From an uncultured bacterium (lineage in GTDB: Bacteria > UBP4 > UBA4092): a DNA stretch of 64,000 nt. The stretch is from positions 118,869 to 182,868 of the forward strand of contig CAZXWN010000001.1 in the NCBI GenBank assembly GCA_964644695.1. Direction: 5' to 3'. A program made the position numbers and the translations under genes. Below, piece by piece: positions 4,173 to 31,254 of the stretch. Positions within the stretch are counted from its first letter, which is position 1. Every line of letters begins with the position of its first letter. The notes beneath the pieces were generated by a model. That model was not told the DNA's origin and did not search any database. It was given only the letters and a program-made list of their open reading frames with translations.

Positions 4173-5348
4173 ATGATGATATTAAAAAAATGTTTCTTAA
4201 TCTCTGTGTTATTAATTTCCATAAGTTTTACAAATCATGTATGGGGAAGGACTTTACCTATGGACACACCCGAATCTGTGGGAATGTCGAGTGATCGCCT
4301 TAAACGCGTAGACAGAGTTATTGATGAAAGTATTAAAAACAAAGAGATTCCTGGTGCTGTATTGCTTGTATCTCATAAAGGTAAAATTGTTTATAAAAAA
4401 GCATATGGATACAGGATGGTAACTCCTCGTCAAGAAAAGATGACGGTTGATACCATCTTTGATATGGCCTCGATTACAAAGCCAATGGCTACTGCCAGTG
4501 GAATTATGTTGTTGGTTGAAGACGGGAAAATAAGATTACAAGACCCTGTTGCCAAATATTTACCAGGATTTGAAGTCAAAGGTAAGGCTGATGTTCCTGT
4601 AGCTTATTTATTAACGCATTGTTCTGGTTTGCCAGCCTGGGATCGTTATGCAACTAAGAATCTGGACCGGGATGGCATCATTGCTGATATATGTTCTAAA
4701 GATACAGCCTACGAGCCTGGAACAAAATTTGTTTATTCTGATTTGGGTTTTGTGTTACTGGGTGAGATCATCACTCGAGTATCGGGTGTTCCTGAAAATG
4801 AGTTTGTTGCAAAAAATCTATATAGCCGACTGGGGATGGAACATACTGGATACTTGCCTCCTGATTCATGGAAAGCTCAATGTGCAGCCACGGAGCCTCG
4901 TGGTGGCAAGATGATGCAGGGTGAAGTACATGATCCCATCGCTTATGCTCTTAAGGGTGTAGCAGGGCATGCTGGATTGTTCTCAACCGTGGATGATATG
5001 GCTGTATATTTCCAAATGCTTTTAAATGGCGGGGTGATTGATGGTGTCAGGATATTTAGTCCTCTCACAATTAGAGAAATGACAAAAAATCAATCACCGG
5101 TAGCTGCGCGTGATTATGGATTTGGGTGGGTGATTGGGACCTCATATGCTGGTCAGCGGGGTGATATATTCCCTCGTGGTGGATTTGGTCATACAGGCTG
5201 GACAGGTACTTCTGTTTGGGTGGATCCTACCTCACAGACCTTTATTGTGTTGCTGACAAATCGAGTTCATCCTGATGGAAAAGGTGACGCGGGAAGAGTT
5301 CGTGCATTAGTAAGTAATATCGTTGCATCTTCAATTATGGATGAATAA
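4173..5348 (+). CDS. Secreted serine hydrolase of the beta-lactamase / PBP4* (class C-like) family
   Basis: Signal peptide, then the SxxK motif (ASITKPM). ~390 aa, typical of AmpC-like esterases. YxN-like and HxG-like (GHAG / GHTGWTG) elements are present. Confidence 0.6.
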   Translation: MMILKKCFLISVLLISISFTNHVWGRTLPMDTPESVGMSSDRLKRVDRVIDESIKNKEIPGAVLLVSHKGKIVYKKAYGYRMVTPRQEKMTVDTIFDMASITKPMATASGIMLLVEDGKIRLQDPVAKYLPGFEVKGKADVPVAYLLTHCSGLPAWDRYATKNLDRDGIIADICSKDTAYEPGTKFVYSDLGFVLLGEIITRVSGVPENEFVAKNLYSRLGMEHTGYLPPDSWKAQCAATEPRGGKMMQGEVHDPIAYALKGVAGHAGLFSTVDDMAVYFQMLLNGGVIDGVRIFSPLTIREMTKNQSPVAARDYGFGWVIGTSYAGQRGDIFPRGGFGHTGWTGTSVWVDPTSQTFIVLLTNRVHPDGKGDAGRVRALVSNIVASSIMDE

Positions 5349-5421
5349 GTCATCTATAAGTCTTTTTTATGATTATAATGAGAATATGAATTGTGTGTGA
5401 TAACTCTAAGGAGGCTTTAAG

Positions 5422-6003
5422 ATGGAACACAAGTTACCAGAACTACCTTACTCAAAAGATGCATTAGTACCTTACATCTCTGCGGAAACAATTGAGTATC
5501 ATTATGGGAAACATCATGCTACCTATGTTGCCAACCTTAATAAATTAATACCCGGAACTGAATTTGAAAATATGTCATTAGATGAGATTGTTATGAAATC
5601 CAGTGGGGGTATTTTTAACAACGCTGCACAGGTTTGGAACCATTCATTTTATTGGAATTGCCTGACTCCCAATAAAGGAGCCAATCCGATTGGACCCCTT
5701 TCTGAAGCTATCAATAAAGCTTTTGGTTCATTTGATATCTTTAGGGAAAAGTTTTCATTAGCAGCGATAGGTACTTTTGGATCGGGCTGGGCCTGGTTGG
5801 TTAAGAATGTTGATGGTAGTTTGGAGATTGTCAGTACTTCGAATGCAGCCACTCCTTTGCGGGATGGAAAAGTGCCATTATTAACCTGTGATGTTTGGGA
5901 ACATGCTTATTACATTGATTATCGAAATGCACGGCCCAAATATGTTGAGAATTTCTGGAATTTGGTGAATTGGGACTTTGTCGCTGCAAACTTTGCAAAA
6001 TAA
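5422..6003 (+). CDS. sodB: Superoxide dismutase, Fe/Mn family (Fe-type signature)
   Basis: [30 protein letters not shown] (Ala-Gln as in Fe-SODs rather than Gly-Gly-His as in Mn-SODs), and [11 protein letters not shown] metal-ligand motif. 193 aa. Confidence 0.8.
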
Positions 6004-6011
6004 AACTGGAT

Positions 6012-6056
6012 TAAAAATAAAAGCTCCTGTTCTTGTCATGAACAGGAGCTTTTTAT
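6012..6056. terminator. Bidirectional intrinsic terminator between sod (+) and galT (-)
   Basis: 12-bp stem aagctcctgttc / gaacaggagctt, loop ttgtcat, A-run upstream and TTTTT downstream. Confidence 0.65.
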
Positions 6057-6067
6057 CTTTGAATTAA

Positions 6068-7129
6068 TTATCCAGCAATAATAGCTGATCTGTCTGGGGC
6101 ATGTTCCTCGGGTGGTTTTGTGTCTTCTCTTTCGATGACGACATCCCGGAGGCATTGAGCTGCATGTTCTGGTGGCGTGGGATTAATATAAAACCCCGTT
6201 CCCCATTCAAATCCGGCGACTTTTGTAAGTTTTGGCATAATTTCCATATGCCAGTGATAAGTGGGCGATTCTGATGTATCACAGGGTGAACAATGAATGA
6301 TGTAGTTATAAGGTGGGTCTTCCAATGTAGTATGAAGTCGTTTCAGAGTTGACTTCAATATTTGAGCAAAATCAACCACATCAGACTTTTTTAGATTTTC
6401 GATGGAAGACGAATGTCTTTTCGGCATAATCCAAGTTTCAAATGGAAAACGAGAGGCAAATGGACAGAAGGACAGAAACTCACTGTTCTCCTCAACCAGG
6501 CGCACTTTAGATAGGCGTTCCTGGGTGATGATGTCACAGAACACACAACGATCCCTGTAGTCATAATACCGCTTAGAACCTTCCATTTCTTCAATAGCAC
6601 GTTTGGGAATAATTGGAGTGGCGATAATTTGACTATGGGTATGTTCCATGGATGCGCCTGCGGCACTGCCATGGTTTTTAAATATCACAATATATTTGAA
6701 TCGACTGTCTTTTTTTAAATCGATATACCGGTCTCGGTAAGCCCAGATTACTTCTTGAATATGTTTATCATCCAAATCTGCCAGATGTGCATTATGATCT
6801 GGAGACTCAATAACTACCTCATGAGCACCAATCCCGTTCATTCGATCATAGATGCCTTCCCCTTGTTTATTTAACTCTCCTTCGATTTGCAAGGCGGGAA
6901 ATTTGTTGGGAACAACCCGGGTCCACCACCCAGGGGAGTTAGGGTAGGTGCCAGCTTCCCGATATGAAAGTACTTCTGGAGGAGTCTTATCTTCATTGCC
7001 ATAACAGAAAGGGCAGAAGCCGCTTTTCTTGAAAGCGGTTTCCTTTCCGAAATCACTGGGTTTTTTACCGCGTTCGGTTGCAATAATTACCCAACGACCT
7101 ACTATCGGATCTTTTCTTAATTCAGGCAC
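6068..7129 (-). CDS. galT: Galactose-1-phosphate uridylyltransferase (UDP-glucose--hexose-1-phosphate uridylyltransferase)
   Basis: CxxC zinc site (CPFCYGNE) and HIT-like HxHxQ (EHTHSQI) active site. 353 aa. Confidence 0.8.
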   Translation of the reverse strand: MPELRKDPIVGRWVIIATERGKKPSDFGKETAFKKSGFCPFCYGNEDKTPPEVLSYREAGTYPNSPGWWTRVVPNKFPALQIEGELNKQGEGIYDRMNGIGAHEVVIESPDHNAHLADLDDKHIQEVIWAYRDRYIDLKKDSRFKYIVIFKNHGSAAGASMEHTHSQIIATPIIPKRAIEEMEGSKRYYDYRDRCVFCDIITQERLSKVRLVEENSEFLSFCPFASRFPFETWIMPKRHSSSIENLKKSDVVDFAQILKSTLKRLHTTLEDPPYNYIIHCSPCDTSESPTYHWHMEIMPKLTKVAGFEWGTGFYINPTPPEHAAQCLRDVVIEREDTKPPEEHAPDRSAIIAG

Positions 7130-7889: not shown

Positions 7890-8027
7890 ATGATACAGAT
7901 TACTGAAGCCATCATCGTATTAGGACTGACCAGCATGTTGGCATTGACCGTGGCAAGATATTCACTGAATGCTGTACTTTATACAATGCATTACTTCCTG
8001 GTCAAAAATAGTCTCAAAAAGCGTTAA
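7890..8027 (+). CDS. Small hydrophobic protein (45 aa) not present in the ORF track
   Basis: ATG 7890, aaggag RBS at 7871-7876 (13-nt spacer). Sequence MIQITEAIIVLGLTSMLALTVARYSLNAVLYTMHYFLVKNSLKKR has one predicted TM helix. Followed 30 nt later by a strong intrinsic terminator. Confidence 0.3.
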   Translation: MIQITEAIIVLGLTSMLALTVARYSLNAVLYTMHYFLVKNSLKKR

Positions 8028-8059
8028 CAAACAAGAAATCCTGATTAACCCTAAACGGG

Positions 8060-8094
8060 CCGCATCTTTCATGTTAAAGATGCGGATTTTTTTT
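8060..8094 (+). terminator. Rho-independent terminator
   Basis: 10-bp perfect stem ccgcatcttt / aaagatgcgg, 6-nt loop, then T8. Confidence 0.65.
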
Positions 8095-8173
8095 GTCTTA
8101 AAATAAATAGTATTTTAGAATATTAGTTGACAAGATTATAGTTACATCGATATACTTCACCTATTACTTAAAG

Positions 8174-8551
8174 ATGGATTTGGGAATGCAGGACGACAAA
8201 ATTAAAATACCCAATAAGTTGTATTTCGACATAAGTGAGGTCAGTGAACTCACGGGTGTGAAACCTTATGTTCTTCGATATTGGGAGAGTGAGTTTACTC
8301 AGTTAAAGCCTACCAAAACATCCAAGGGACAGCGGAAGTATAAAAAGAAAGATATTGAAAAAATACTGGAGATCAAAGAGCTTCTCCGAGACGAGAATTA
8401 CACAATTGCTGGCGCACGCAAGAAACTGACCCAGAAACAGACAGAACAAGTGCGAAAACCGGATTTATATTCTATTATTGAGGATGCGAAAAAAGAATTG
8501 TATTCACTCCGGGATATGTTAAGCCGACCTGTCCAACCACGCAGAAAATAA
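8174..8551 (+). CDS. MerR-family HTH transcriptional regulator (small, stand-alone)
   Basis: YFDISEVSELTGVKPYVLRYWESEF matches the MerR-type HTH signature (I.E.a..tGv....lRyyE). 125 aa with a basic/coiled C-terminus. Confidence 0.55.
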   Translation: MDLGMQDDKIKIPNKLYFDISEVSELTGVKPYVLRYWESEFTQLKPTKTSKGQRKYKKKDIEKILEIKELLRDENYTIAGARKKLTQKQTEQVRKPDLYSIIEDAKKELYSLRDMLSRPVQPRRK

Positions 8552-8626
8552 AAGTATCTATTATTTTCTTCTATTTATACTCTAACCTCTTCTGTTAGCA
8601 ATAAATTACCTGTTCAAAAAGGATTT

Positions 8627-19865: not shown

Positions 19866-21758
19866 TTAATTGCGTAGCTGATTAGCTTTAAGAGCTTCCT
19901 GGTCAGCTTTCCAATTATCTCCAACTGAGTGGTAAAAGTTGGAGAGTAATTGATGATATTCTGGTTTAGTTGGATATAGATCACAAGCTGCTTTGTAATT
20001 GGTTTCGGCTTGGAGTAGATTTCCTGATAACTCATAAGCCTTGGCTAAATCAGCTCTTAAAAAAGCCGTCTTAGGATTCAGTTCTACGGATTTTTTTAGA
20101 ATCGGAATCCCTTGTGCAAAATCGCCTAAACTGACCAAAGTATTCCCTAAATGTTGTTGGTATTCAGATTGATTAGGCATATTCTTTACTGCTTTTTGAA
20201 ACGAATCAATAGAGCTTCTAATTTCACCAGTACTGAGTCTGTTTTGTCCTTGCATGAAATACACTTGAGCTTTGAAATTGGGTAATACCCAACCTAAAAG
20301 ATAAATGGCCATAATCAAAATCAGAGAGGGTGTAATAATTAAAAACCAGGTGTTAGGTTGCCGTCTCCATACAATATCCCATGGTCCCGGTTCAGGCACA
20401 AACTCAGCCTGACAGGCTGAATATAATCCACCCAAAACAATGCAGCCAATCCAGAATAAATCCTTCCAATAAAAACCAAACCCCACGAATGAGTCTGTAA
20501 AAAAGGCGGCTGTGGCTGCGTAAAAAATAACGAATTGAAGTTGGACATCAGGTCTGGTTAATTTGCGCCATCTCAAGAGTGGCCAGATCAAGACGGTTAA
20601 AAATAATACTGAGAATCCAATGCATTGGAATATGCCACCTTCCACCCATGTCTGGATAAAGGTGTTGTGAGCATATCTGGTTTCACCTACACCGACTGGT
20701 TTATATTGTCCATATATAGTACCGAAATTTCCTAAACCCGCTCCTAATATGGGACGGTCTTTAATCATGTCCATTGACATGGACCAGTAATTAATACGTT
20801 CTTGTGTTGTAGACTGACCGGATTTGATACGATTTGTGATTGACTCATTTTTTTGTGGGGCGGGGGATTGATATTGACAAACAATAAATATAACTAATAT
20901 TCCCAAAAGACTGGTTGTGAACCACACCTTCATCTGGAGTAATTTCTTCTTGTCTATAAGAATTGCAAAGATAACTAATGCGATGATTGTCGCCAGAATT
21001 CCACCTCTGGATGCACTCAGTAACAAGCTGGTTCCCATCAGAGCTATGGACAGAGTCGTGAGAATCTTTTTTTGCAGCGAGCATGTGTCGAATAGATAAC
21101 CCATTGCTAATGGAATACAGATTGCCAATAAGAGGGCAAATAGGTTGGGATTTCCAAATGTTCCTGTAACACGATGGGATTCGAGTGTGAATTGAATCCC
21201 AGACAGAATCCGAGGGCTTAGTTCTGTTTGCACTTGGGGAAGCAGAGCCAATTGTTGATTGAATTGGAAAAGATACTGATAAAGTCCAATGATTGCCTCA
21301 AACGCACCAACCAGAACTAATACTCCAATCAAAGTGAAACGAAATTTTCTCTGAGGATACTCTGTTTCCAATTCATGTTCGTGCAGGGTTTTTAACTGAT
21401 GGTTTGCGGTTAATAAATAGGTGATAAATCCCAATAATAGAATATTCCATGATTGGAAACTGTTGTATCGATAGACTGAGCTTAGTAAGCCAAAAGAAGA
21501 TAAAACAAGAAATGCACTGAATGCCAGGGTGATTGGATTATATCTTTGAATTTTCCATTGGAATCCTTTTCTTCTGACTGTTTGATACAGAAGAAGCATC
21601 ATCAGGCAACAGGGTATTACAAAAGTTAATGTGGGCGTGATATCAAAGGGTACTAAAGCGATTAATCGGGGATAGATAGCAATGATGCTAAGTAATAATA
21701 GGCTGACATGAAATAATTCATTCATTGGACATAGTTTCCTTATCAGATGATAATTCAC
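19866..21758 (-). CDS. Polytopic membrane protein with an O-antigen ligase (Wzy_C)-like domain and C-terminal TPR repeats
   Basis: About 10 TM helices and an SRGG motif typical of O-antigen polymerase/ligase. The C-terminal 180 aa are TPR-like. The true start is probably Met-12 (about 21725), reducing the overlap with scpB. Confidence 0.55.
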   Translation of the reverse strand: MNYHLIRKLCPMNELFHVSLLLLSIIAIYPRLIALVPFDITPTLTFVIPCCLMMLLLYQTVRRKGFQWKIQRYNPITLAFSAFLVLSSFGLLSSVYRYNSFQSWNILLLGFITYLLTANHQLKTLHEHELETEYPQRKFRFTLIGVLVLVGAFEAIIGLYQYLFQFNQQLALLPQVQTELSPRILSGIQFTLESHRVTGTFGNPNLFALLLAICIPLAMGYLFDTCSLQKKILTTLSIALMGTSLLLSASRGGILATIIALVIFAILIDKKKLLQMKVWFTTSLLGILVIFIVCQYQSPAPQKNESITNRIKSGQSTTQERINYWSMSMDMIKDRPILGAGLGNFGTIYGQYKPVGVGETRYAHNTFIQTWVEGGIFQCIGFSVLFLTVLIWPLLRWRKLTRPDVQLQFVIFYAATAAFFTDSFVGFGFYWKDLFWIGCIVLGGLYSACQAEFVPEPGPWDIVWRRQPNTWFLIITPSLILIMAIYLLGWVLPNFKAQVYFMQGQNRLSTGEIRSSIDSFQKAVKNMPNQSEYQQHLGNTLVSLGDFAQGIPILKKSVELNPKTAFLRADLAKAYELSGNLLQAETNYKAACDLYPTKPEYHQLLSNFYHSVGDNWKADQEALKANQLRN

Positions 21759-27371: not shown

Positions 27372-27400
27372 TTGTCATAGTTGTAGGCATGTCTTATAAT
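27372..27400 (+). promoter_or_regulatory. Sigma-70-type promoter upstream of the secreted-protein cluster
   Basis: TTGTCA, a 17-nt spacer, then TATAAT. Confidence 0.5.
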
Positions 27401-27497
27401 TAATCGATTTGTTACATAATTGTAGCCCTATTGGTTTTTATATTGTTTTAAACTATTTGTGGAATTTTGCTTATAAAAGTGAAGGGGAGGTGATTTT

Positions 27498-28262
27498 GTG
27501 TTAAAGAAATTAATGTTATTAATAGCTGTTACTCTCATTGCCAGTTTTTCATTTGCTGCTGGCCAGCTTGATATTGTTCCGCAGTATTTTATGGGAGACA
27601 CAGCGACACCTTTTGCTGTTCATTTTCAAATTACTGATTTGGGAACTTATGCCAGTCTTAGTGTTAAAGCAAGAATGACCAATGCAGCTGCGACTGATTT
27701 TACTAAAAATGCTTATACGTGGTCTACGTTAAGCTCACTCTGGGGCAATGATAGCTATTCATGGAAAAATTTAAGTGTTTTTCCCATTTCTGGTGGAGTT
27801 GCAAGTGGTTGGTTGATTGTAAAAAACTGTACCTTGAATTCATACGGTATTTGCAGTATCAAGGCTAGAGCGAGAGTAAATGGTGGAACATCAACAAATT
27901 ATGTTACATCAACATCAGCCATTACTGCTTTAGATCCTGCTAATAATGGCGGATGGATTGCTGGTAACTACATGAGCAATGAAGATAAAATCGTGTTGGT
28001 TAAAGATGATGCTAACAATGTTTTAGGTTCCGGTTTGACTGAAAATAACAATGTCAATGAAGGGTATGCATCAACGAATCCAGGCTATTTTAAAGTTGCT
28101 CTTCCAACCGGGACTCGTAATCTCAAACTTTCATTCTTAAATAAGGATGGAAGCAGTGCTGGTTCCGACTATAATTTAGGTTCAGTTACGATTAATGCAA
28201 ATGAAACTAATAGTGCTTTTGGAACAGTTCCTGTTGAGTTATCTGGTTTTATTAGTGAGTAA
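27498..28262 (+). CDS. Secreted Gly/Thr/Ser/Asn-rich protein ending in the conserved tail VPVELSGFISE
   Basis: GTG start with a GGGGAGG RBS. Signal peptide (LLIAVTLIASFSFAAG). 254 aa. The C-terminus shares a motif with the next two genes. Confidence 0.5.
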   Translation: MLKKLMLLIAVTLIASFSFAAGQLDIVPQYFMGDTATPFAVHFQITDLGTYASLSVKARMTNAAATDFTKNAYTWSTLSSLWGNDSYSWKNLSVFPISGGVASGWLIVKNCTLNSYGICSIKARARVNGGTSTNYVTSTSAITALDPANNGGWIAGNYMSNEDKIVLVKDDANNVLGSGLTENNNVNEGYASTNPGYFKVALPTGTRNLKLSFLNKDGSSAGSDYNLGSVTINANETNSAFGTVPVELSGFISE

Positions 28263-28287
28263 TAATTGTTATTCTGATATACAACAA

Positions 28288-28320
28288 AAGCTTATCTTCA
28301 AAAGGAGATAAGCTTTTTAT
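28288..28320 (+). terminator. Intrinsic terminator
   Basis: 10-bp stem aagcttatct / agataagctt, 8-nt loop, then TTTTT. Confidence 0.6.
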
Positions 28321-28510
28321 TATTTTAAGCAAATATCTACATAAAAGTAGCAAGTGCATATATTGACAAAAATCCTGTTTTCGATGAATATTGTTTTGGC
28401 TGACCATTTCAGGTGATGGAATGGAATTTAGTGAAAAGGTGGTGAGTATGTATATGTATTCAATTAGCCAATTAATTCAATATAGTCATCGTTTAAAAAG
28501 GAGAAACATT

Positions 28511-29551
28511 ATGAGGAAGTTATTGTTTTTAACAGTATTTATAATTTGTGGCTTTTCATTTTCTGCAACTTTGACGCAATCATGGTTGGTTTCCACAACA
28601 TCAGGCACTTCACAGGGTGTTGGTGCTGGTATTGTTTTGATGGATGCCGGTAGTGCTCTTAGAGGTTTTGATTTTTCTACAACCGAAAGTAAAGTGTTTT
28701 TGGCTTCTGGTACTAATATATATGTTATTAATTCTAATGATGGTACAACTACAGGGAATGGCTATAATCAAAACGGGCAAGTTGATGTTACCGGAGCTTC
28801 TGGCGGAACACGCGTAATCAATAAAGTGAAAGTAGCAGACGATGGTGCTATTTACGCCTGTAACTTACAAACAGCTATTGCAACCGGTGCGTTAAAGATT
28901 TATCGCTGGGCAACTTCATCATCATCAATCTCTGTGGCCGTCAATACTACAATTTCTGGACTTCCGGTTGCTAGATATGGTGATTCTTTAGGTGTTGTTG
29001 GTTCTGGTGTTAATACTGAAATATATGTGAGCGGTTCGGCACAGACACGAATCTTGAAATTTACTACGACAGATGGTGTCAATTTTACTCTTGCTACTAC
29101 TATTGCTGTCACAGCAAATTACGGTGGTACAGATATTGCTCCAGTTGCTGTTAATGGTAATTTATGGGTCAGTGGTAGTGGTGTATTAACATATAAAATT
29201 AACCAAAGTGGCACCGTTCTTGAGACTATACCAGGAACTGTAGCCGCTACTGGATGGCCTGTATCCATGATTGCTAAAGCAAAAAGTGGCAAAACCTATA
29301 TTCTGAAAACTCCAGGAAATACAGCTGGTGCAAAAGTAGGTAATTTGATAAATGTCACGAGTGGTGCATCTTCCGCAACAAATGACTATCAGACTCCTAC
29401 CATAGGTTCAAATGCAAATACTAATGCTACAGCTGCTGCAGCATATGATTCACTGACGGATTCAGTATATTTTATGATTACAAATAATGGATATGGGAAA
29501 TATGGAGATGCAACCTTACCGGTTGAACTAAGTGGTTTTGAAACAGAATAA
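28511..29551 (+). CDS. Secreted Gly/Thr/Ser-rich repeat protein ending in LPVELSGFETE
   Basis: AAGGAG RBS 7 nt upstream of ATG 28511 (track ORF is 28391..29551). Signal peptide (LLFLTVFIICGFSFSA). 346 aa. Shares the C-terminal motif. Confidence 0.5.
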   Translation: MRKLLFLTVFIICGFSFSATLTQSWLVSTTSGTSQGVGAGIVLMDAGSALRGFDFSTTESKVFLASGTNIYVINSNDGTTTGNGYNQNGQVDVTGASGGTRVINKVKVADDGAIYACNLQTAIATGALKIYRWATSSSSISVAVNTTISGLPVARYGDSLGVVGSGVNTEIYVSGSAQTRILKFTTTDGVNFTLATTIAVTANYGGTDIAPVAVNGNLWVSGSGVLTYKINQSGTVLETIPGTVAATGWPVSMIAKAKSGKTYILKTPGNTAGAKVGNLINVTSGASSATNDYQTPTIGSNANTNATAAAAYDSLTDSVYFMITNNGYGKYGDATLPVELSGFETE

Positions 29552-29555
29552 TTTA

Positions 29556-29598
29556 ATTAAAAACTCCCTGTTGCCCATGGGTAACAGGGAGTTTTTTT
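29556..29598. terminator. Bidirectional intrinsic terminator between convergent secreted-protein genes
   Basis: 10-bp stem actccctgtt / aacagggagt, palindromic 10-nt loop, A5 upstream and T7 downstream. Confidence 0.65.
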
Positions 29599-29601
29599 AT
29601 T

Positions 29602-31254
29602 CTATTCGGCAAGAAAATCTGATAATGATATGGGTACAGTAAACCCTATTATTTCATCTGCACCGGGCCAGCAGGACATGGCTCGGGTTTCCCCATCAAA
29701 GTCCAATATACACTCATCTAATCTGTTGACAGGTTGTATTGCAGGTGTTTCAGCACTTCCTGAGAAATGCAAGTCAGTTGTAGATATCCAGCTCCCTGGA
29801 GATGTGCTTAATGGATCAATAAATTGGCTGTTTATATCACAACCGGATAGCGTCTGCCATTGGGAAAGAGTCGATACTTGTTGGGTGGTTAGTTGTCCCA
29901 ATAGAGCATTATTTTCTGTATAAATAACATTGTTGTCTGAAGTAAAACTTCCACCACTTCCTAGTTTGTATATAACAGCCATCCCTGGATGTGATGTTCT
30001 AAATATATTATTTTTAATAATTGCTTTTCCCGTAAAACTACTGCTGGTTAATCCTAATATATAACACTTGCTTGCTGGAAGGTTTCCGGTCAAAGAAGTG
30101 GTTTGATTACACATATTTATCGAATTGTTCAAAATATAGTAATTAAAATTTGCAGATCCCAGCCGAAGCGCAGAATATGCAACTTCAGCTGCAGTACTTC
30201 GTAATACCCAGTTTTGGGAACTAATTATATTATTTTTGACGATGAAATTAGTGTTTCCAGTGGAAGTTCCAAAAAACTCGACTGCCCAAACTCCATTGGA
30301 TGCGATGGTATTTTTACTTGATAAAACATCAAAAACACAGGAATCAATTACTGTTGTCAGGTTTGTATAGGATGTGGCTATATAACTAATCCCTACACAG
30401 TCATATCCTGATGTATTTTGGTTAACTCTTATCGTTGAGTTTGATATGGTTCCCCAGTAGGGATAAGTGATAGAAATACCATGTTTTCTTCCACAAATTA
30501 ACGAGTTTTTTATCGTCATTCCTGACATTGGAATTAGTGAGTCAGGAGAAGCGGAAGTCCTATACTCAACAGCACTTCCCGTAATGCTATTCATAGCTGA
30601 AACAAGAACACAATTATCTATTAAACCGTTATCAGGTATGCATTCAACACTGGATACTTTTCGGGCAGTAAAAGCAATTGCTGCCGAAGTAAGAGTTGAC
30701 GATGTTTGATTAATTATGGAGCAATTTTTAATTATGGTGTTATCGCAGTCTCCATAAACATGAATAACTCGGATATGATTTCCTGAACCAGAATAGATAA
30801 TTGATAAAAGATTAACGGATGTATCATCAGAAGGCGAACCATCAATAACAAAATTGTCAGTCTTAATCAGTGAATTTTCATTTGCATTCTGAGACGCACC
30901 AATTACAATGCTTCCCGGGATACCTGATGTATATGAATGATTAAAGGTGATGGTCTTTTTTGTTCCGTTTGTAGGACGAATAGTTATCTTATGCCCATTA
31001 GTATTTTTCCCAAAATAACTGGCAATTGCTTCAGTCAGGTCTGAATCAATATATATTGTCCAATCTCCCTGACATCCTCCAGCATAGTTATTAAAGTCAG
31101 TTGATGCTGAATACAAGCTAGGATAATCAGAGTTCACCCCTCCTACAGTTGATGATCCCAATCCACCTATTTCACTGAATCGACCAGCTTGGCTTTGGGA
31201 TAAAGTTAATGATAATAGAATCCCTAATACAACAAAAAAACGGTTTAAAAACAT
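29602..31254 (-). CDS. Secreted right-handed parallel beta-helix repeat protein (pectate-lyase-like fold) ending in VPISLSDFLAE
   Basis: Signal peptide MFLNRFFVVLGILLSLTLSQSQA. Repeated N-x-(I/V)-x-x-(N/S/D) beta-helix rungs (for example NNIISSQNW, KNNIF, NCSIINQT). 550 aa. Confidence 0.5.
   Translation of the reverse strand: MFLNRFFVVLGILLSLTLSQSQAGRFSEIGGLGSSTVGGVNSDYPSLYSASTDFNNYAGGCQGDWTIYIDSDLTEAIASYFGKNTNGHKITIRPTNGTKKTITFNHSYTSGIPGSIVIGASQNANENSLIKTDNFVIDGSPSDDTSVNLLSIIYSGSGNHIRVIHVYGDCDNTIIKNCSIINQTSSTLTSAAIAFTARKVSSVECIPDNGLIDNCVLVSAMNSITGSAVEYRTSASPDSLIPMSGMTIKNSLICGRKHGISITYPYWGTISNSTIRVNQNTSGYDCVGISYIATSYTNLTTVIDSCVFDVLSSKNTIASNGVWAVEFFGTSTGNTNFIVKNNIISSQNWVLRSTAAEVAYSALRLGSANFNYYILNNSINMCNQTTSLTGNLPASKCYILGLTSSSFTGKAIIKNNIFRTSHPGMAVIYKLGSGGSFTSDNNVIYTENNALLGQLTTQQVSTLSQWQTLSGCDINSQFIDPLSTSPGSWISTTDLHFSGSAETPAIQPVNRLDECILDFDGETRAMSCWPGADEIIGFTVPISLSDFLAE

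Follow-up and report, generated by a model that had tools for sequence, protein, structure and literature searches.

Three neighbouring, otherwise unrelated signal-peptide proteins end in an 11-residue tail that recurs at the C-terminus of many unrelated secreted proteins in several little-known bacterial phyla, and that is positionally homologous to the first β-strand of an Fn3-like domain. The tail looks like an undescribed sorting signal. In Hydrogenedentota and Sumerlaeota genomes that bear it, we found small lipoproteins that carry this Fn3-like domain without its first strand, usually encoded next to a PorU-like C25 peptidase, which suggests that the lipoprotein may read the tail by strand complementation. 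This last step is inferred, since neither partner gene lies in the 64,000-nucleotide stretch of DNA that we analysed (hereafter the window) and the rest of this genome could not be searched.

Three adjacent secreted proteins share an extreme C-terminal tail

The region contains the following elements:

27498..28262 (+): gene 1, a 254-aa signal-peptide protein with no known domain, ending in the tail
28230..28262 (+): tail 1, PVELSGFISE plus TAA
28286..28317 (+): terminator-like hairpin after gene 1 (14-bp stem followed by a T run)
28511..29551 (+): gene 2, a 346-aa signal-peptide protein related to DUF4623, ending in the tail
29519..29551 (+): tail 2, PVELSGFETE plus TAA
29559..29596 (no strand assigned): bidirectional terminator hairpin (17-bp stem) shared by the convergent genes 2 and 3
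29602..31254 (-): gene 3, a 550-aa signal-peptide protein ending in the tail
29602..29634 (-): tail 3, PISLSDFLAE plus TAG

The three proteins end in ...TVPVELSGFISE, ...TLPVELSGFETE and ...TVPISLSDFLAE*, respectively, that is in VPVELSGFISE, LPVELSGFETE and VPISLSDFLAE. The start of gene 2 was placed at an ATG preceded by AAAGGAG, although the longest ORF in that frame starts at 28391. A six-frame scan of the window found the motif only at these three places, each directly before a stop codon, and the degenerate DNA pattern CCNRTNNNNYTNWSNNNNTTYNNNNNNGARTAR hits exactly these three sites, compared to 0.00 expected in 100 shuffles. All three proteins have signal-peptide-like N-termini, and their bodies do not match each other by BLASTP. 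These data confirm the preliminary description, which had noted the shared tail, with one correction: gene 3 stops at TAG rather than TAA.

The tail did not arise by recent DNA duplication, because its codons differ between the genes (Ser TCT/AGT/TCA, Leu TTA/CTA/TTA, Glu GAG/GAA) and the upstream DNA does not align. The apparent similarity downstream of genes 2 and 3 is the bidirectional terminator that the convergent pair shares. Likewise, the tail is not the stump of a broken or read-through gene, since terminator-like hairpins follow the stops and no downstream frame encodes the rest of any domain.

None of the three proteins has a Pfam or NCBIfam hit (E<=1), and no paper that we found covers the tail. 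At 11 residues, it is not a folded T9SS C-terminal domain (CTD) of about 70-100 aa matching PF18962/TIGR04183 or TIGR04131. It also lacks the PEP motif, hydrophobic TM helix and Arg-rich tail of PEP-CTERM proteins, and the signature motif, TM helix and basic tail of LPXTG, GlyGly-CTERM, PGF-CTERM and similar signals. Nor does it fit the β-signal of outer-membrane barrels, which ends in an aromatic residue: the last residue is Glu or Asp in all 81 tails that we collected (a feature imposed by the search for the pattern-derived tails, and independent only for those found through homologues and gene context), and the bodies are soluble-type proteins such as subtilases and LTD-domain proteins.

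The tail is widespread and is exchanged with known anchors

A stop-anchored DNA pattern scan of species genomes found the tail at the end of about 70 long ORFs (110-1270 aa), which concentrate in Sumerlaeota/BRC1, UBP4_UBA6127 (17 hits), Acidobacteriota and Hydrogenedentota, with a few in other groups. The remaining hits were short junk ORFs, and a control scan of a viral collection gave 2 junk hits. Tailed ORFs are enriched for signal-peptide-like N-termini (48/55, or 87%, compared to 72/182, or 40%, of neighbouring ORFs; p=2e-10).

The tail is conserved in orthologues of two of the three families. Orthologues of gene 2 end in the tail (P0013, P0015, P0016), in PEP-CTERM with VPEPGT, a TM segment and RR (P0017, P0020, P0024), or in an Fn3-like domain plus T9SS CTD (P0021, P0022). 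Orthologues of gene 3, one homologue of which (P0007) is named by its source a right-handed beta-helix repeat protein, end in VPVELSSFNIE, LPVAVSAFTID, VPVEVEFFMVD and LPVTVEWAVVD, whereas the T9SS-phylum orthologues P0009 and P0010 continue from LPVELTSF into a full domain plus CTD. P0009, P0010, P0021 and P0022 all carry PF18962. By contrast, the gene 1 family has only one tailed homologue, a 38%-identical ORF in the UBP4 genome UBA6127 (locus L104, 5255-6025) that ends in VPVELSSFSIE.

These comparisons support both ideas of the preliminary description, namely that the tail is a C-terminal sorting or processing signal and that it corresponds to a PVEL(T/S)SF-type first β-strand; the two are compatible with each other. 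The PDZ or C-terminal-processing protease that it proposed as a possible partner is not supported. Pfam, NCBIfam and PDB sequence searches with the full PVELTSF domain assigned it to no family and returned only a weak Ig hit.

Tail-bearing Hydrogenedentota and Sumerlaeota genomes encode lipoproteins that lack the corresponding strand

An HMM of the full domain found, 6 nt downstream of a tailed subtilase in the Hydrogenedentota locus L110, a 173-aa lipoprotein that matches only domain positions 22-94. Its family is conserved, and the family's profile hits 16,769 proteins, including dozens of 120-240-aa lipoproteins with no PVELxxF strand. Non-lipoprotein copies of the domain, by contrast, carry PVELxSF directly upstream. 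The AF2 model of one lipoprotein, P0041, is Fn3-like (pLDDT 87.8 with a 54-sequence alignment; a 10-sequence alignment gave an unusable model with pLDDT 48), and its first strand is ARIRLFWRT. Basic residues at positions -5 and -3 from the strand-B Trp occur in 74%/70% of the lipoproteins, compared to 24%/21% of cis domains, an enrichment that is not corrected for phylogenetic relatedness.

In 8 of 12 independent gene contexts, the lipoprotein gene lies next to, or one gene from, a Peptidase_C25 gene, and P0053 is a natural fusion of the C25 peptidase and the domain lacking strand A. The lipoprotein-adjacent or -fused C25 proteins that were scored match NCBIfam PorU at 151-185 bits, far below the cut-off of 420, and all retain GHG...W and PxxFxxxC motifs. 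Tailed genes flank these pairs in L110 and in three further loci (L116, L119 and L124). Tails and lipoproteins lacking strand A co-occur in two Sumerlaeota MAGs identified by accession prefix (CAYYNQ01, CAZSMK01), in two Hydrogenedentota contigs, and probably in a third Sumerlaeota MAG, for which only the source metagenome matches. A metagenome scan for more lipoprotein loci returned only 2.

Within the 64-kb window, we found neither a lipoprotein of this family nor a C25 gene, and none of the T9SS core genes (SprA/Sov, PorK/L/M/N, PorV) or a true PorU. The neighbours include a histidine kinase, a Wzy_C-TPR protein, ScpB, a transketolase (from Pfam domains on the identical gene in locus L001) and a SpoIIE phosphatase. 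No such lipoprotein was seen in the roughly 90 kb sampled from UBP4 or the roughly 200 kb sampled from Acidobacteriota, and linkage is therefore shown only for Hydrogenedentota and Sumerlaeota.

A model for recognition of the tail

We propose that the tail, [VL]-P-V-E-L-[ST]-x-F-x-[VIA]-[ED]-COOH, is a sorting or attachment signal on Sec-exported proteins and the detached strand A of an Fn3-like domain, the rest of which (strand B, with the conserved Trp, through strand G) is supplied by the small lipoprotein or, occasionally, by a module fused to the enzyme. After export, the tail would dock as an edge strand against strand B, with its terminal acidic residue and carboxylate facing the Arg/Lys residues that these modules conserve at the start of strand B. 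Docking would tether the cargo to the lipid-anchored module, present it to the C25 peptidase for cleavage and possibly sortase-like transfer to the cell surface, as PorU does, or both; the evidence does not distinguish these outcomes. Docking, cleavage or transfer, cellular location and the presence of the partners in this genome are inferred, without a model of the complex. Moreover, the lipoprotein is predicted to fold confidently without strand A, and its C-terminal helix plus strand (residues 149-165) might itself occupy the vacant edge. With one or two lipoproteins per genome and dozens of cargos, the numbers argue against simple stoichiometric anchoring. On balance, we regard this model as about as likely as not.

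In its most far-reaching form, which remains tentative, this would be a previously unrecognised, multi-phylum sorting system in which cargo is recognised by completing a split Fn3 domain on a lipoprotein adaptor coupled to a PorU-like peptidase that acts as a sortase or activator: a natural SpyTag-like tag and catcher for cell-surface display, and possibly an evolutionary relative of the T9SS attachment step outside the FCB phyla. If correct, the tail would be the first bacterial C-terminal sorting signal read by strand complementation rather than by a TM-anchored motif or a folded CTD. It would allow surface proteomes to be predicted in Sumerlaeota, UBP4, Hydrogenedentota and many Acidobacteriota, which are largely uncultured polymer degraders whose tailed proteins include subtilases, C25-like peptidases, LTD-domain proteins and proteins related to beta-helix repeat families. 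It would also show that PorU-like peptidases work outside T9SS phyla, which bears on how the T9SS attachment complex arose, and an 11-residue natural tag with a receptor of about 100 aa is a candidate protein-ligation or display tool.

Alternative explanations

The strongest alternative, although we consider it unlikely, is that the tail is a genuine sorting or processing signal read by other machinery, such as an outer-membrane translocon, a T2SS-like system, or a PDZ-domain or C-terminal-processing protease, and that the lipoprotein and C25 pair is only a frequent neighbour or one more cargo-related module. The evidence for a sorting signal applies equally here, and the absence of both partner genes from the window and from the UBP4 and Acidobacteriota samples is in line with this view. 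In addition, prepilin-type pseudopilin-like genes neighbour tailed genes in 9 of 63 loci, and some C25-like peptidases in Sumerlaeota carry the tail themselves, which makes them cargo. However, this view does not explain why the tail is precisely strand A of the domain that the lipoproteins carry without strand A, nor the natural fusion in P0053, nor the tight adjacency of tailed, C25 and lipoprotein genes in L110, L116, L119 and L124.

Less likely still, the tail could serve assembly among the cargos or with other surface proteins, for example by donor-strand polymerisation or by docking onto complete Fn3/Ig domains or an S-layer, without a dedicated receptor. Its β-strand character and homology to an Fn3 edge strand fit this idea, and donor-strand exchange can build surface fibres. 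Yet the cargo bodies (subtilases, beta-helix proteins, LTD proteins, C25-like peptidases and unknowns) are unrelated and show no common acceptor groove, and orthologues replace the tail with bona fide membrane or cell-surface anchors. Finally, that the tail is a functionless remnant, left after lineages that lost T9SS deleted the remainder of the domain and the CTD, is suggested by the full domain plus CTD in T9SS-phylum orthologues but is disfavoured, as the tail always ends exactly three residues after the Phe, ends in an acidic residue in every tail collected outside the pattern scan (which itself required Asp or Glu there), is kept at protein level despite codon turnover, occurs on many unrelated families in at least four phyla, and is replaced by PEP-CTERM in other orthologues.

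Comparison with known systems

The T9SS CTD/PorU system of Bacteroidota/FCB likewise uses a C-terminal signal on Sec-exported surface enzymes, PorU is the best NCBIfam match of the candidate C25 partner, and FCB orthologues of the cargos are T9SS substrates. Here, however, the signal is a single 11-residue strand rather than a folded CTD of about 80 aa, and recognition would be by a split Fn3 module rather than by PorV. Type V pili of Bacteroidia (FimA/Mfa1) combine the same three components, a lipoprotein with a vacant or vacatable strand slot, a C25-family peptidase (gingipain) and a C-terminal donor strand from another protein; in our case the acceptor would be a single small Fn3-like module rather than a pilin, the donors would be diverse enzymes, and no polymer is implied. 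As with PEP-CTERM/exosortase, LPXTG/sortase and similar choice-of-anchor signals, there are many cargos per genome and cargo genes sometimes sit next to the putative processing genes, but the tail ends in a free acidic residue. In chaperone-usher donor-strand complementation, the myomesin:obscurin-like-1 complex (PDB 5fm5) and the engineered SpyTag/SpyCatcher pair, one missing β-strand of an Ig-like sandwich is supplied by a peptide from another chain. The families and biological settings differ: here the missing strand is strand A, it would come from the extreme C-terminus of secreted enzymes, and there is no evidence of an isopeptide bond. Myomesin Fn3 chains from the 5fm5 entry are among the fold matches of the lipoprotein model.

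Three adjacent exported proteins share a C-terminal tail

Listing the open reading frames of this region revealed three adjacent ORFs that end in closely similar residues. The features of the locus are as follows:

27498-28262 (+), gene 1, 254 aa, ending in TVPVELSGFISE
28286-28317, terminator-like hairpin following the stop of gene 1
28511-29551 (+), gene 2, 346 aa from the ATG behind a Shine-Dalgarno sequence, ending in TLPVELSGFETE
29559-29596, terminator-like hairpin with a perfect 17-bp stem flanked by A and T runs, serving as a shared bidirectional terminator for the convergent genes 2 and 3
29602-31254 (-), gene 3, 550 aa, ending in TVPISLSDFLAE

A six-frame motif scan of the 64-kb window found the tail only at these three places, each time immediately before a stop. 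A degenerate DNA pattern that covers all three tails plus the stop gave 3 matches, against 0.00 expected in 100 dinucleotide-preserving shuffles. All three proteins start with signal-peptide-like sequences, their bodies show no BLASTP similarity to one another, and none has a Pfam or NCBIfam family. The tails are encoded with different codons (Ser TCT/AGT/TCA, Leu TTA/CTA, Glu GAG/GAA), and the DNA upstream does not align. The similarity is therefore maintained at the protein level and is not a recent duplication. No frame downstream of the stops encodes a continuation of any domain. The preliminary description had all three genes stopping at TAA; gene 3 ends at TAG.

The tail occupies the position of other C-terminal anchors

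Upon examination of homologues of gene 3 at 29-40% identity, we found that they end in VPVELSSFNIE, LPVAVSAFTID, VPVEVEFFMVD and LPVTVEWAVVD. Two homologues with a T9SS CTD (PF18962) continue at the same alignment position as LPVELTSFSASVIGSKVKLNWQTATEINNYGFEIQR, followed by the CTD. Homologues of gene 2 fall into three groups at one and the same position: some end in VPVELSEFLSE, LPVELTSFDTE or LPVELDMFQID; some carry a classic PEP-CTERM (VPEPGT, then a TM segment, then RR); and some carry LPVSLSSFTAAV, then a domain of about 95 aa, then a T9SS CTD. This is the pattern expected of a C-terminal anchor or sorting module. It also shows that the tail is positionally homologous to the first strand (strand A) of a domain of about 95 aa, which has no Pfam or NCBIfam model and only a weak Ig-like hit in the PDB.

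Tailed proteins occur in several phyla

We next scanned one genome per GTDB species for [LVF]PVE[LF][ST..]xFxx[DE] followed by TAA or TAG. About 70 of the matches terminate ORFs of 110-1270 aa or ORFs cut by the locus edge. By record title, these come from Sumerlaeota/BRC1 (about 21 loci), the UBP4 genome UBA6127 (17 matches in 12 loci), Acidobacteriota of the classes Thermoanaerobaculia, Holophagae and Vicinamibacteria (about 25 loci), Hydrogenedentota, an unclassified MAG (SBS.BIN.55), and single Planctomycetaceae and Dokdonella MAG contigs. The remaining matches end ORFs of 1-90 aa and are noise. Among them is a conserved 32-75-aa frame of unknown nature ending FVPVEFSSFALD that matches the DNA pattern in many Nostoc genomes (loci L010, L024, L029, L036, L038, L043 and others), which we treated as pattern noise. 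The same pattern in the viral collection gave two junk hits.

Tailed ORFs belong to many families, including subtilases, C25-like peptidases, LTD-domain proteins and unknowns. With a crude predictor, 48 of 55 tailed ORFs have signal-peptide-like N-termini, against 72 of 182 neighbouring ORFs (Fisher p=1.7e-10). The consensus of 81 distinct tails is [V>L]-P-V-E-L-[S>T]-x-F-[S/T/x]-[V/I/A]-[E>D], with no conservation upstream; because several of these positions were fixed by the search pattern, the unbiased range is given by the tails derived from homologues of genes 2 and 3. UBP4 tails (FMTE, FLSE, FLAE, FSTE) resemble those in the window, and UBP4 homologues of genes 1 and 3 are 33-38% identical and carry the tail. 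The tetranucleotide composition of the window correlates best with a UBP4 locus (r=0.95).

In 9 of 63 loci (L018, L026, L041, L057, L067, L092, L101, L108 and L109), proteins of 200-245 aa with prepilin-type N-termini (GFTLIELLIVVAIIAIL) lie next to tailed genes. This could be chance in phyla rich in such paralogues, or a hint at a T2SS or pseudopilin link.

A lipoprotein lacking strand A is a candidate receptor

We built an HMM of the complete domain from four T9SS-type homologues and searched all retrieved loci in six frames. It gave one significant hit (E=2e-6), a 173-aa ORF lying 6 nt downstream of a tailed 1156-aa subtilase in the Hydrogenedentota locus L110. The ORF has a signal peptide with a lipobox Cys, a linker of about 25 residues, and then domain positions 22-94 only, that is the domain without its PVELxxF strand (hereafter A-less). 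Its relatives are all lipoproteins of 150-170 aa with the same truncation. Their profile finds 16,769 proteins in the 1.84-billion representative set. Among the best 150 hits there are dozens of lipoproteins of 120-240 aa, none of which has a PVELxxF-like strand. Non-lipoprotein copies of the domain, including T9SS substrates, have PVELASF, PVKLSAF, PVQLSAF or PVELSSF directly in front.

Basic residues at positions -5 and -3 from the strand-B Trp occur in 74%/70% of 43 such lipoproteins, against 24%/21% of 87 cis domains. This is where the acidic C-terminus of a docked tail would lie, although the comparison is suggestive only, because it is not corrected for relatedness.

The A-less lipoprotein is linked to PorU-like peptidases and tailed genes

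We recovered twelve independent gene contexts of the lipoprotein. In eight of them a Peptidase_C25 gene is adjacent, or separated by a single tailed gene.

Gene contexts in which the A-less lipoprotein lies near a Peptidase_C25 gene (locus or contig: arrangement)
L110: C25 - tailed subtilase - lipoprotein
L115: C25 adjacent
L116/117: 4-nt overlap with C25
L118/119: C25 adjacent
L120/121: C25 adjacent
Contig of protein P0057: lipoprotein - C25 - GT4
L122: C25 adjacent
L126: C25 adjacent

In addition, protein P0053 is a natural fusion of a C25 peptidase, an Ala/Pro/Glu-rich linker and the A-less domain. The three lipoprotein-linked C25 proteins that were scored (L115, L119 and the P0053 fusion) match NCBIfam's PorU model best, at 151-185 bits over about 500 positions, which is far below the 420-bit equivalog cut-off. 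All C25 proteins examined, including the partial ones, keep GHG...W and PxxFxxxC motifs about 38 residues apart, which appear to correspond to the His/Cys dyad of family C25.

Tailed genes lie next to these pairs. L116 has one ending in PVPVELSIFSVE just upstream and one ending in VVPVELSVFTAE downstream, and L119 has a subtilase ending in AVPVEVSGYLID. In L124, a tailed LTD-domain gene (product ending in GPVPVELDSFVIE) is flanked by two different A-less lipoproteins, at 6510-6959 (-) and 8001-8597 (+), one of a short type and one of a long type with a KPL..E..I..G..FR extension; no C25 gene lies within 8 kb. By accession prefix, L120 and L124 belong to Sumerlaeota MAGs that also gave tail hits elsewhere (CAYYNQ01, CAZSMK01), and L119 comes from the metagenome of a third such MAG. 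In the Sumerlaeota locus L084, a 721-aa C25-like peptidase (4682-6847, -) carries the tail itself, ending in VVPVELSVFNIE. T9SS PorU likewise carries its own CTD.

Several of the lipoprotein/C25 pairs sit beside glycan-synthesis genes, namely GT2, GT4, capsule synthesis, a PMT-like GT-C, an O-antigen-ligase-like fragment, DUF6311 and DUF6798 (L120 1915-9782; L118 1579-2742 and 11499-13292; L128 3-2370; the P0057 contig). This could relate to a glycolipid attachment substrate, as A-LPS does in T9SS. In the window, a 630-aa Wzy_C (O-antigen-ligase-like) protein with C-terminal TPR repeats (19866-21758, -) lies about 6 kb upstream of the tailed gene cluster, but no link to the tail was established.

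A model for recognition by strand complementation

The best-supported reading of these observations is that the tail is a sorting or attachment signal that works by beta-strand complementation. In this arrangement, the detached strand A of a predicted Fn3-like fold, at the extreme C-terminus of exported proteins, would dock on an A-less Fn3 module that is lipid-anchored or fused to a PorU-like C25 peptidase. Docking, catalysis, cellular location and the route across the outer membrane are inferred, as is, importantly, the presence of the partners in the genome from which the window derives, since the 64 kb that could be searched contain neither. The fusion protein and the many-cargos-per-module ratio favour a role as a substrate-docking adaptor for the peptidase, with cleavage and perhaps sortase-like transfer as in PorU, although simple non-covalent tethering to the lipoprotein cannot be excluded. 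It is further possible that the lipoprotein's own C-terminal helix and strand (residues 149-165 in the predicted model) plug the vacant edge until removed, which would parallel gingipain-activated type V pilins.

The tail fails the defining features of T9SS CTDs, of PEP-CTERM, of LPXTG-type signals and of the OMP beta-signal. Functionally, it sits closest to the T9SS CTD/PorU step, to type V pilus assembly (lipoprotein, C25 protease, C-terminal donor strand), and to trans-complemented Ig/Fn3 folds. No curated family covers the tail or the A-less lipoprotein, and no paper in the literature searched describes either. C-terminal sorting signals with a dedicated sortase-like enzyme are already known. 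If strand complementation is confirmed, there is a substantial chance that the recognition principle is categorically new.

Other C-terminal tails

Two family members whose relatives carry the PVEL tail, P0008 and an ORF of L084 (2083-4260, -), end instead in PLTAVEHWTDY and PPALVENWFLY, which may represent a second tail variant (VE.W..Y-COOH). Among the hits of the lipoprotein-family profile, P0122, P0149, P0153, P0160, P0166, P0187 and P0193 are cis copies of the same Fn3-like domain with strand A present (IELSSFTA or LIELTSFDA). These end in a different recurrent short tail, ATPR[WFL]I[FY]G[IF]FG[FK], which may be yet another uncharacterised C-terminal anchor motif.
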